DNA of 64,000 nucleotides from Phycisphaerae bacterium. Its GTDB lineage: Bacteria; Planctomycetota; Phycisphaerae; UBA1845. The position numbers and the translations under genes are program-made. Below are positions 39,431 through 43,251 of this stretch, piece after piece. The DNA lies in assembly GCA_046753625.1 (NCBI GenBank), contig JBHHUB010000001.1, forward strand, positions 4,377 through 68,376, in the 5' to 3' direction. The notes under the pieces are model-generated. The model worked only from the letters and a program-made list of their open reading frames with translations. It had not been told where the DNA came from and did no database searches. How positions within the stretch are numbered: position 1 is the stretch's first letter; every line of letters begins with the position of its first letter.

Positions 39431-40696
39431 CTATTCGTACAGCGGGAACTGCGCGCAGAGCGATTTCACTTCGTTGCCGACCTGCTCGATCACGTTCGCG
39501 TCTCCCTGTGATCGCAAGACACGGTCGATCAGCTCCGCGATCGCACCCATTTGGGCTTCCCTCATACCGCGCGTTGTGACGGCCGGGGTGCCGAGTCGCA
39601 GGCCGCTGGTCTGCGTGGGCTTGCGCTCGTCGAACGGGATCATGTTCTTGTTGGTGACGATGCCGGATTGAACGAGCCAGGTCTCCGCTTGCGCTCCGGT
39701 GACGTCCGGATAGGCCGGGCGAAGGTCGAGGAGCATCAAATGATTGTCCGTGCCGCCGGAGACCAACCGGTTGCCTTGTTCGGCCAGCGCCGCGGCCAGC
39801 GCGCCGGCGTTGGCGATGATCTGACGCTGATAGTCGGCGAACTCCCGCGTGAGGGCCTCGCCAAAGGCCACGGCCTTGCCCGCTATGGCATGCATCAGCG
39901 GGCCGCCTTGCGTGCCCGGGAAGATGCGGGAGTTGATCTTCTTGCCCCATTCCTCTTTGCACATGATGAGTCCGCCGCGCGGGCCGCGTAAGGTTTTGTG
40001 CGTGGTGCTGGTCACGAATGCGGCCGTGGGGACGGGGCTGGGATGCAACTCCGTGGCGACCAGACCGGCGATGTGGGCGATGTCGGCCATGTGCAGCGCG
40101 CCGACCTCATCGGCGATGGCGGAAAAGCGATCGAAATCAATGGTGCGCGGATAGGCGGACGCCCCGGAGATGATGAGCTTGGGGCGGTGTTCCTTGGCGA
40201 GTCGCTCGATTTCATCGTAGTCAAACTGCTCGGTCTCCCGATTCACACCGTAGGACACGATTTTGTAGAGCAGCCCGCTGACGTTGACCTTCAGCCCGTG
40301 CGAAAGGTGGCCGCCGTGCGCCAGGTCGAGCGAGAGAATCGTATCGCCCGGCTCAAGCGCCGCCAGATAGACGGCCGTGTTGGCGTTGGCCCCAGAATGC
40401 GGCTGCACGTTGCAGCACTCGCACCCGAACAACTTGGTCAGCCGATCTCGGGCCAGATTCTCGATGGTGTCCATGTTTGCGCAGCCGCCGTAATAGCGCT
40501 TGCCCGGATAACCTTCGGCGTACTTGTTGGTGAACACCGAGCCGACGGCTTCCAACACGGCCTGCGACACGTGGTTTTCCGAGGCGATAAGCTCGATGGT
40601 GTTCTGCTGACGATCGACCTCGGCCAGCATGGCGGGTAGGATTTCCGGGTCGGTTTCCGCGATGGCTTCAAACGCGGCGCGTGTCGCGATGCTCAT
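39431..40696 (-). CDS. glyA: serine hydroxymethyltransferase
   Basis: Diagnostic segments are [22 protein letters not shown] (PLP lysine) and [10 protein letters not shown]. Confidence 0.95.
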
Positions 40697-40778
40697 GGAA
40701 TCACCTCTGTTATGGGTTCAACGTACAATCTTGGCAACAGTCGCCACGTTATCCGCCGTCGAGCCGAAAATCAACGTG

Positions 40779-40820
40779 GGGTCGAAGGTCAAAGGTCAAA
40801 GGTCGAAAATCGAAAATCGG
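40779..40820 (+). repeat. heptamer tandem array GGTCRAA x4 + AATCGAA x2
   Basis: The sequence is GGGTCGAAGGTCAAAGGTCAAAGGTCGAAAATCGAAAATCGG. Related arrays occur at 41714..41748 (inverted) and 59905..59928. Confidence 0.8.
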
Positions 40821-41078
40821 AGGCGGCGCCGGTGTGGTCGGTAGTCGGGGGGATGGGGGTTCCCGTGCCCTACCCCGCGCGGGTGCCCCACCTCCTGTGG
40901 GAGGTGGGGGCGCCGATGATCGTGACCGACTGATGCCTGCTTCTGCCAACGACCCAAGCCGCCGCGCCGTGGCGGTCCACCCGGATGGCATTCGATTCCT
41001 AGTGGCCGCGAGATCATCGGCTCCCCCATGTCCAATAGGACATGGGCCACCCGCCAGCCGTGTTTTTGCGGGCGTGGC

Positions 41079-41627
41079 CTATTGGGGCGGCATTTCCGGC
41101 TCGAGGTCGACACCGAGGCCGTCCGCGATGCGGTTGATGTAGTTGAAATAGGCCACGGTCTGTGTGGCGTCGTGAATGGCGCGATCGGAAAGCCCCAGGT
41201 TTCGCAGGTCGGAGACATCCTCGGAGGACATTTGGCCGGGCGTTTTGGTCAGCTTCAAAGCGAACGCGCACAGCGCGCGGTCAACGCTCGACAGCTCCGC
41301 TTCATTGAAATCCGCTACGATCTGATCGACCCATTCGTTGTTGTCAACCTCAACCCGGAGGTTGTCCGCGTGGGCATGGGTTCAGTAGTGACATTCGTTG
41401 GCACGAGACACCACGACAGCCATCATCTCCCGTTGCGCGCGGGTCAGCGGAGAATCGCCGTGCATGACCGCCATGTAGAGGCCCATGCCCGCTTGGAGCA
41501 CGGGTGGGTTCTGGCTTTGAACGCGGACGATGTTGAACACGCGCCCGGCCCGCTTCACACCGGCGGCGTACACCCGGGCCAACTGCCCTTCGGCCTGATC
41601 CTCCGCTATCTGTTCAATCCATGCCAT
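41079..41627 (-). CDS. AhpD/carboxymuconolactone-decarboxylase-family 'peroxidase-related' protein with in-frame UGA (probable selenocysteine, C-H-Y-U)
   Basis: The track ORF 41382..41627 stops at TGA right after ...SRANECHY. The same frame stays open for 100 more codons to TAG 41079..41081. Those codons complete the domain (..SVDRALCAFALKLTKTP..LSDRAIHDATQTVAYFNYINRIADGLGV). The TGA occupies the position of the second Cys of the family CxxC motif. Confidence 0.7.
41329..41381 (-). promoter_or_regulatory. candidate bacterial SECIS element
   Basis: It starts directly 3' of the UGA. A lower stem ACCCAU/AUGGGU encloses an apical 7-bp stem CAACCUC/GAGGUUG (41364..41345). The apical loop is CGGGUU, 26-30 nt after the UGA. 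Confidence 0.5.
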
Positions 41628-41713
41628 AACTTACCTCATTGAGTGCGATCACGCTTACGCGTCTCCGAACAATCGGAACAACTCCGTATCCAACCCGCGA
41701 TCGTGAAGACCCA

Positions 41714-41748
41714 TTGACCTTCGCCCTTTGGCTCTTGACCTTCGACCC
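41714..41748 (-). repeat. GAAGGTC-type repeat (inverted relative to 40779..40820)
   Basis: Minus strand reads GGGTCGAAGGTCAAGAGCCAAAGGGCGAAGGTCAA. It starts a few nt after the L,D-transpeptidase stop codon. Confidence 0.65.
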
Positions 41749-41757
41749 TCCCACGCC

Positions 41758-42846
41758 TCAATTCAGCACCCTCACGGTGGAATGAGTTTCTACTAAATAG
41801 GCGTACAGTTGCGCCACGTCGTCATTGTACATGCGGATGCAGCCCAACGATACGCTGTGTCCGATGCTGTTGGGCTCGATCGTCCCGTGGATGCCGTACC
41901 GCTGAGCGCCGAGGGCATCTCCATCCGCACCGATCAGGGCGATCCAGCGCTCGCCGAGTGGGTTGGCCGGATCGTCCGCGGCGATCATCTGACCACCACG
42001 CGGCGGGTAATAAGTGGGGTTCCTGAGTTTGGTGCCCACACGCCATGTCCCCGTGGGGGTGCCGTCATCGGCTCCCAGGCCGACCTTGAAGTGCGTGACG
42101 AAGGTATCGCCCAGATAGACGTCCAAGACGTATTCGTGCTTGTGCACGACGGCTCGGAACGGTCCATAGATGACTTTGATTACCTGCCCCGCGCGAATGA
42201 GATTGATGTTTTCGATGTTGTTGATCGATGCCAGCAGCCCGGCGGATATCTTGTGGGCTTTGGCGATCTCGCCCAGGGTATCGCCCGGCTTGATCGAATA
42301 CCGACCGACGTGCGCATCGCCGGACCAGGTGCGCGGCGAGAGAATCGTGTCGTTGCCGATGCGCGTCAGCGCCGTGCGCAGGCGCGTGCGATCGGGCTCG
42401 CCGATCTCCGCGAGCATGGCTTCACTGTACCGGGCTCGGGCCGTGAGCACGTCGTTTTCGGCCATCGCTTGATCCCCGGCACGAATCAAGGCGGCCAGAC
42501 GATTTCCGTTGGCTTCGCGGCTCGCGGGGGGCTTGGCCGGCGTGCGCTTGGCGCGTTTCGCTGATACAGGCCTTTTAGGGGATCGTGCGGTGGCGGTTTC
42601 GGACCGGTCCGGTACCGTCTGGCGCTTGGCTGCATCCGACGTGGCCCCAGGCATGCCTGCAAGCAGCGGCTTCTGATTGCCCAGCGGACTGGCCGCGAGC
42701 CCTTGAGCGGGATCGGGCGGCGACGCATCCGGCGTCAGCCACCACGCTCCGGCGGCCAGAACCGCAAGGCCCGCAACGATCGGAACAACAGGTAGGCCGC
42801 GCCGCCGGCGAGTCCGACGGGGGCGGTAGGAACGGCGTCTTGCCAT
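41758..42846 (-). CDS. LysM domain-containing L,D-transpeptidase (YkuD family)
   Basis: The LysM unit is YSIKPGDTLGEIAKAHKISAGLLASINNI..AGQVIKV. The catalytic motif is YGIHGT...SVSLGCIRM. The start was set to ATG 42846 (GGAGG upstream; MARRRSYRPRRTRRRRGLPVVPIVAGLAVLAAGAWW). Confidence 0.88.
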   Translation of the reverse strand: MARRRSYRPRRTRRRRGLPVVPIVAGLAVLAAGAWWLTPDASPPDPAQGLAASPLGNQKPLLAGMPGATSDAAKRQTVPDRSETATARSPKRPVSAKRAKRTPAKPPASREANGNRLAALIRAGDQAMAENDVLTARARYSEAMLAEIGEPDRTRLRTALTRIGNDTILSPRTWSGDAHVGRYSIKPGDTLGEIAKAHKISAGLLASINNIENINLIRAGQVIKVIYGPFRAVVHKHEYVLDVYLGDTFVTHFKVGLGADDGTPTGTWRVGTKLRNPTYYPPRGGQMIAADDPANPLGERWIALIGADGDALGAQRYGIHGTIEPNSIGHSVSLGCIRMYNDDVAQLYAYLVETHSTVRVLN

Positions 42847-43251
42847 GGTTTCGCCTCCATGCGCGAAAGTTGATGCGGGGGCCAGCCGCAAAACGGCCTG
42901 ACCATTCGTGGGTACCACACCTGTAATCAAGCTTACGCCCATTTCGCTCGGATGCAAGTGGAATTACCGCGATCGGGAGTGGCCGCGGCACAATCGCGTC
43001 CAAACGCCAAACCTTAGCCGAACACCCGGCAACGCGGTTCCCCGCGCTCGAGCAGTTCTCATTCGACGGCTACCCGCCGCGATTCGATCGGCATCGCTCG
43101 TGAAGAGACAGAATCTCACAGAGCCTAGCGCCGATAGATTCGGACGGTCATGGTAAAAAGAGGCCGTCATCGCGTTCTTGTGGTGGTGCTGCTTGACGGA
43201 ACGCGCCGGTCTGTCTCCAATGCGGATGCGATTTGCGGAGAAACACAGGCG

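Follow-up and report, generated by a model that had tools for sequence, protein, structure and literature searches.

A reading frame on the minus strand of the window (the whole 64-kb stretch of DNA analysed here) starts with an ATG at 41627-41625, opens with MAWIEQIAED and, as called, ends after 81 amino acids with the residues SRANECHY at a TGA (41384..41382). Past this TGA the same frame continues without a stop for 100 further codons (THAHADNLRVEV...LEPEMPPQ), up to a TAG at 41081..41079. The mechanical list of open reading frames gives the 81-residue N-terminal piece and a 59-residue piece from an internal TTG. The start residues MAWI... are common to the homologues described below, and a GAGG shortly before the ATG probably serves as the ribosome-binding site. 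The frame lies between genes for an L,D-transpeptidase with LysM (41758-42957) and a serine hydroxymethyltransferase (39431-40696). The coordinates and sequence statements of the first-pass annotation of this DNA all hold on re-reading the sequence, and the features of the locus are collected in Table 1.

Table 1. Features of the AhpD-like locus, in window coordinates, with the evidence on which each is placed.
Feature	Coordinates	Strand	Basis
Predicted AhpD-like (TIGR01926) selenoprotein coding sequence; 182 codons with UGA as Sec at codon 82, plus TAG stop	41079..41627	minus	translation, TIGR01926, PF02627, 6K40
Shine-Dalgarno-like GAGG, 6 nt before the ATG	41634..41637	minus	read from sequence
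E67, partner in the AhpD-type proton-relay set E/C/Y/U/H	41427..41429	minus	invariant in 83 homologues
Active-site helix codons C79-H-Y-U-T-H-A-H86	41370..41393	minus	invariance in 83 homologues, AhpD-like spacing
In-frame TGA, predicted Sec codon 82, second position of C79-H-Y-U82	41382..41384	minus	alignment with Cys homologues, conservation
SECIS-like apical hairpin CAACCUC/GAGGUUG; 7-bp stem, 6-nt loop CGGGUU	41345..41364 (loop 41352..41357)	minus	bacterial SECIS model, covariation, codon constraint

Both halves of the frame are composed like real genes of the window: in this DNA of 62% G+C, codon positions 1/2/3 have a GC content of 0.70/0.43/0.78 upstream of the TGA and of 0.65/0.37/0.75 downstream. 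This TGA is also the only one in the 64 kb that bridges two coding-like segments, and a search of the 64-kb window for such bridges, with coding composition on both sides, returned no further selenoprotein genes. Among the ordinary stops of the window TGA is the most frequent, ending 14 of the 23 composition-supported genes, which means that there has been no genome-wide reassignment of the codon.

The first-pass annotation had proposed that reading through the TGA completes a carboxymuconolactone decarboxylase (CMD)/AhpD-like 'peroxidase-related' domain and that the UGA takes the place of the second active-site cysteine; profile searches bear out the first point, and alignment to cysteine homologues and solved structures the second. 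The 182-residue read-through product matches TIGR01926 (peroxidase-related, AhpD-like) with 155.1 bits (E=1.5e-45) against a curated cutoff of 81.8, and PF02627 (the CMD/AhpD core) matches it as well. The TIGR01926 match is one stretch that places residues 3-177 on model positions 2-177 of 178, and because it runs uninterrupted across the TGA, the two halves make one domain. The product also aligns over residues 8-178 with 6K40 (DR1765 of Deinococcus radiodurans; E=6e-28) and with the structural-genomics proteins 2OYO, 3C1L, 2PFX and 2PRR, and the full-length sequence matches to these five solved homologues fix the fold. Two other family identities were ruled out. The score against TIGR00777, the model of AhpD sensu stricto (M. 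tuberculosis type), is 18.1 bits, far under its cutoff of 191.95; NF041238 (AhpD_rel_CFYUT, 357 positions) gives a partial match over model positions 151-339 only, with 73.3 bits against a cutoff of 175.

At the positions aligned with C79..U82, cysteine-containing TIGR01926 homologues carry CQYC (P0047), CPYC (P0048) and CTYC (P0065), and the solved structures carry CVYC (6K40), CLYC (2OYO) and CYYC (3C1L). The C-x-Y-C motif thus falls exactly on C79-H-Y-TGA82, which means that the UGA stands in for the second redox cysteine. The spacing of E67, C79, Y81, U82 and H86 is identical to that of the proton relays of PA0269 (Glu36/Cys48/Tyr50/Cys51/His55) and of M. tuberculosis AhpD (Glu118/Cys130/His132/Cys133/His137) (PMC3141380); the relay residues of AhpD sensu stricto are present here, with AhpD spacing.

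A scan for homologues, taking one genome per species, recovered 80 loci that encode relatives of essentially full length, with 48-67% identity. With the contigs obtained from protein look-ups these make 88 loci, or 83 non-redundant ones (the 80 genomes and three further contigs) after duplicates of the window and of one other locus (L004) are removed. The search patterns were not biased to TGA, and the sole pattern spanning the site demanded a Cys codon. TGA occupies the aligned codon in all 83 non-redundant loci (88 of 88 with the duplicates). Protein identity is about 47-67% and continuous through the TGA, over residues 1-176 or more, and E67, C79, Y81 and H86 are invariant in the 83 homologues. 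These belong to at least five phyla, Planctomycetota (the majority), Acidobacteriota, Actinomycetota, Gemmatimonadota and Chloroflexota, and the groups among the 80 loci include Bryobacterales, Vicinamibacterales, Thermoanaerobaculia and Acidimicrobiia. The closest, at 64-67% identity, are Phycisphaerae MAGs.

Public annotation agrees with the earlier expectation that callers would truncate or split this gene. In public assemblies the same gene, found unchanged in contigs of runs SRR29324588, SRR29324591 and SRR29324594, is called as 81 amino acids and its homologues appear as C-terminal fragments of 100-120 amino acids; the gene is cut up because its internal UGA, on our reading, encodes selenocysteine (Sec). 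Some public predictions of Sec-form homologues show W (P0002, P0003, P0019), G (P0004) or a gap (P0001) at the Sec position, presumably through the use of genetic codes 4 or 25 or through other caller behaviour. At the DNA level the codon of P0003 is TGA, so its W is an artefact of the caller's genetic code.

The hairpin that follows the UGA spans nucleotides 21-40 counted from the U of the UGA and encodes N-L-R-V-E-V. Its energy is -8.4 kcal/mol, its spacing from the UGA is 24 nt, and position 2 of its loop is a G, followed by another G. The first-pass annotation had recognised the geometry of a bacterial SECIS element, and every constraint of the published model is satisfied: a loop of 3-9 nt, a stem of 4-16 bp, a spacing of 16-37 nt, a minimum free energy of at most -7.5, and a G at loop position 1 or 2, with G or U as the usual next base (PMC13188914). 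The fold of the single sequence is not significant (z=-1.55; 18 of 200 shuffles fold equally well), and a hairpin that satisfies the model follows 86 of the 1618 UGA triplets in the window, a chance level of 5.3%. Taken alone, the hairpin is weak evidence; the comparative signal is strong.

The 84 sequences align gap-free over 48 nt from the UGA onwards. In this alignment a stem is formed by nucleotides 21-27 and 34-40, with the consensus CGACCUC, a 6-nt loop and GAGGUCG. Paired cells make up 94% of the total; shifting the partners by 1-3 columns lowers this to 25-49%, and none of 500 shuffles reached the observed pairing or covariation score. Two-sided changes are found in four of the seven stem pairs. 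Pair 21-40 is CG in 40 sequences, GC in 12 and UG in 12; pair 22-39 is GC in 73, GU in 7 and AU in 1; pair 24-37 is CG in 70 and UA in 8; and pair 25-36 is CG in 81 and UA in 2. The sole A-U at pair 22-39 is that of the window, where a GUC-to-GUU change, itself synonymous, offsets an Asp-to-Asn change (GAC to AAC). Protein constraint adds to the conservation of the hairpin, which encodes the conserved D/N-L-R-x-E-V. We therefore turned to a synonymous site in the loop. The Arg codon there (loop positions 1-3) is CGG in 43 of the 84 sequences, CGU in 40 and CGC in none, as against 54% CGC and only 7.6% CGU among the other 1311 Arg codons of the same genes, and G or U comes after the loop G in 83 of the 84. 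The bias falls on a synonymous site, so the protein cannot explain the conservation of the G-G/U loop, and the hairpin is clearly under constraint at the RNA level.

Two Cys homologues have TGC at the Sec codon; the more distant one (L092) is without the hairpin, and the closer one (L091) has a degenerate hairpin. A close homologue in a Logan contig (L093:2001-2582, SRR8466080) has AGA (Arg) at the Sec codon and keeps a perfect hairpin, GACCUC-CGGGCU-GAGGUC. Possible explanations are a recent loss of Sec that probably inactivated the protein, and a sequencing error.

The hairpin had originally been drawn in two parts, of which the apical stem CAACCUC/GAGGUUG is conserved and the lower stem ACCCAU/AUGGGU is not. 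The lower stem does form in the window sequence. With the apical stem enforced, at least four enclosing pairs arise in 80% of the 84 homologues and in 82% of shuffled flanks, with no gain in energy, and we rejected the lower stem as part of the element. A search of Rfam gave no match at the gathering threshold for the window and no match at E up to 10 for 41250-41450; no curated Rfam model covers the element.

Decoding of Sec depends on the machinery encoded by selA, selB, selC and selD, and we assume that the host genome carries the sel genes and hence is competent for it. No tRNA genes, tRNA-Sec included, were found in the 64-kb window, and tblastn with E. coli SelA, SelB and SelD gave no match there; as the window is 64 kb of a multi-megabase genome, this absence says little. 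Some Planctomycetes have been reported with the full Sec machinery (PMC4807772). Two of the homologous loci adjoin parts of it. In a Planctomycetaceae MAG (L032), a full-length selB (L032:10773-12638; E=2e-63, covering SelB residues 1-598 of 614) lies directly downstream, beginning 220 nt past the gene. In an Actinomycetes MAG (L073), a tRNA-Sec with anticodon tca lies 2 kb upstream (L073:7929-8021), and selB and selA lie 1.2-3.5 kb downstream (L073:11743-13996).

Apart from these cases, neighbouring genes offer little guidance to function. A clustering of the open reading frames within 5 kb on each side over the 80 loci was swamped by spurious ORFs in overlapping frames of the GC-rich DNA; no real neighbour appeared in more than ~15 loci, and the gene context therefore points to no functional partner. 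The ten neighbours scanned in the window include genes for YkuD/LysM, serine hydroxymethyltransferase, cytidylyltransferase-like, HEAT-repeat, ABC transporter and RDD proteins and three without a Pfam match; no peroxiredoxin/ahpC or other redox partner is among these ten. An L,D-transpeptidase gene with LysM is also found upstream of the homologue in L007.

We conclude with high confidence that a single intact gene occupies the locus and encodes a 182-residue AhpD-like (TIGR01926/COG2128) thiol-selenol oxidoreductase, with UGA codon 82 decoded as Sec; that Sec itself is inserted at position 82 is a prediction from these comparisons. The UGA might instead be read without selenium in an organism that has no Sec machinery, with Trp, Cys or Gly entering by near-cognate decoding or reassignment. 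We consider this very unlikely. It would agree with the failure to find sel genes in the 64-kb window and with the W at this codon in public calls such as P0002, P0003 and P0019, but the W of P0003 is a genetic-code artefact over a TGA, and a codon that ends 14 of the 23 composition-supported genes of the window, with no second coding-like TGA bridge, is still in use as a stop. Homologous loci that adjoin selB, selA and tRNA-Sec also argue against it, and selenium-free read-through gives no role to the conserved G-G/U-loop hairpin or to the synonymous codon constraint.

It is highly improbable that two products are made, with translation ending at the TGA after 81 residues and the downstream part either untranslated or translated on its own. 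Although this is what automatic annotation of the gene and of its homologues says, the break would divide the active-site motif and split a single compact AhpD-type domain. The earliest in-frame start 3' of the TGA is a TTG at 41258, 42 codons on, and the start codons picked by callers for the homologous fragments vary case by case. A nonsense pseudogene, in which a Cys codon (TGC/TGT) became TGA in a dead gene with a decaying downstream frame, is scarcely credible: a single C/T-to-A change would suffice, callers give the 81-residue fragment only, and the AGA of L093 indicates that the codon position can mutate, but such a gene cannot account for the same 'stop' in 83 of 83 non-redundant loci over several phyla at 47-67% identity through it (which disposes of the refuting case that the first-pass annotation had named), for 100 intact downstream codons with coding-type GC3 and a profile match to the last positions, or for the two-sided G-C to A-U change that maintains the hairpin in the window lineage.

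A mechanism for the proposed decoding of codon 82 as Sec can be modelled on E. coli fdhF, in which SelB with Sec-tRNA(Sec) binds the apical loop of a hairpin and Sec is delivered to the UGA. By analogy, the hairpin 21-40 nt downstream may offer its G-G/U loop to SelB-Sec-tRNA(Sec) as the ribosome nears the UGA, and Sec would then go in at the UGA in place of termination. The window element resembles the fdhF SECIS in being a hairpin within the coding sequence, just 3' of the UGA, that exposes G-G/U in a small apical loop. It differs in that the homologue comparison detected no conserved bulged U or lower stem. A 4-nt GGUC loop closed by C-G, as in fdhF, is present in 13 of the 84 homologues and not in the window, whose loop is more distant from the UGA, by a few nucleotides, than that of fdhF (24 nt here; 16-37 nt in the consensus model).

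Once inserted, Sec82 would, from what is known of the family, occupy the place of the exposed, attacking second cysteine of the AhpD CxxC motif, and the invariant His86/Glu67 relay would activate it. In M. tuberculosis AhpD this second cysteine, Cys133, is exposed and attacks AhpC, and the first is partly buried (PMC6626918). The Sec82 selenolate may attack a peroxide or an oxidised partner, for example the sulfenic acid of a peroxiredoxin; resolution of the adduct by Cys79 would then give a selenenylsulfide, which a cellular dithiol system could re-reduce. DR1765 of D. radiodurans is the closest characterised homologue; its mutant is sensitive to H2O2, and variants with an altered CxxC complement it much less well (PMC8945050).

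That AhpD-like Sec proteins form an established class was correctly stated in the first-pass annotation. The AhpD-like family with CxxU (COG2128) was introduced as a new bacterial selenoprotein family, with 27 sequences, in the Sargasso Sea study of 2005 (Zhang, Fomenko & Gladyshev; PMC1088965). The GOS survey placed it fourth in abundance among selenoprotein families, counting 299 Sec and 902 Cys forms (PMC2398784), and it stands under TIGR01926 in the table of a 2026 review (PMC13188914). The window gene agrees with this 'AhpD-like 1' family in each feature compared here: a TIGR01926 score above cutoff, CxxU with a predicted Sec at the second redox position, a UGA/Cys pair through its Cys homologues, homologues with UGA, and a bacterial SECIS hairpin with a loop G directly 3' of the UGA. 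There is no essential difference between the two, although the window copy is Planctomycetota-like and the family was first known from marine metagenomes.

DR1765 (6K40), 2OYO, 3C1L, 2PFX and 2PRR share the TIGR01926-type fold with the window protein and have CxYC in register; they carry Cys at the second position, where the window gene would have Sec, and are without the DLRxEV hairpin region. M. tuberculosis AhpD (Rv2429) is the adaptor/reductase of AhpC. It has the same relay, Glu-x11-Cys-x-x-Cys/Sec-x3-His, and its attacking second Cys is the Sec position here, but the profile match is weak and the motif lies in another part of the chain. The NF041238 family (AhpD_rel_CFYUT, 'hypothetical protein 1' of the Sargasso Sea) is likewise AhpD-related, with C-x-Y-U followed by T, but is a separate and larger family with a 357-residue model.

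The gene, for a small enzyme of antioxidant type, is a mis-annotated member of a long-known selenoprotein family, and its novelty is low because that family was described in 2005. What our comparisons add is that the nearest 80 species all have the TGA, that a fixed DLRxEV hairpin carries a CGG/CGU loop codon, and that the AhpD-like Sec gene is occasionally linked to selB, selA and selC. They bring a Planctomycetota-like genome among the users of this family and offer a clean example of an RNA signal that constrains codon choice and amino-acid sequence together. For annotation, one 182-residue selenoprotein should be recorded here, rather than an 81-residue fragment followed by non-coding DNA. 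The same mis-annotation recurs in the public records of dozens of genomes, where it masks both a redox enzyme and the use of selenium.

A wider scenario can be sketched, which we think unlikely. The Sec form of TIGR01926 would be a single, horizontally spread lineage with its SECIS hard-wired in D-L-R-x-E-V. Many aerobic Planctomycetota, Acidobacteriota, Actinomycetota, Gemmatimonadota and Chloroflexota of soil and fresh water would have it, each time split by annotation, and it would perhaps be one of the main selenoproteins by which these groups retain Sec decoding. If this were true, the occasional adjacency of selB, selA and tRNA-Sec would fit, as with fdhA in Proteobacteria.

Some of the homologous loci have peculiarities of their own. 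An in-frame insertion of ~55 residues, low-complexity and non-homologous, follows straight after the SECIS hairpin in L004:2893-3363 (GCA_964494205.1), L005 and L006, and the 120-residue 'gene' called in L004 (P0120) has a part of this insertion as its false N-terminus. On a contig labelled 'uncultured Bifidobacteriaceae' (L016, CAYJPQ010000003.1), a tRNA-Pro directly precedes a homologue that shares 59% identity with the window protein; the label looks odd among Planctomycetota-like top matches, and wrong binning or labelling may be the reason.

In the window itself, a scan of 40650-41850 for promoters and terminators gave background levels, with terminator-like matches only within coding sequence. 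The spacer between the selenoprotein stop and glyA is 380 nt long and contains GC-rich inverted repeats. One, at 41018-41053, starts 26 nt past the TAG and has 16-nt arms 4 nt apart; a longer one joins 40879-40921 with 41012-41054, with 43-nt arms that are 81% complementary and 90 nt apart. These repeats are without a T-run and are therefore not classical intrinsic terminators. Short tandem heptads GGTC[G/A]AA occupy the two intergenic regions that flank the gene, oriented oppositely at 40779-40807 (plus strand) and 41714-41748 (minus strand), and together form a 29-nt inverted repeat, 86% complementary, with its arms 912 nt apart. Among the 93 fetched loci, only contigs of the same organism have the heptad motif. 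Counting copies with up to 2 mismatches, the window contains the 13-mer GGTCGAAGGTCAA 11 times where 1.8 would be expected, and the two heptad spots account for 5 of these copies; the heptads could be the site of a regulator or the remnant of a repeat.
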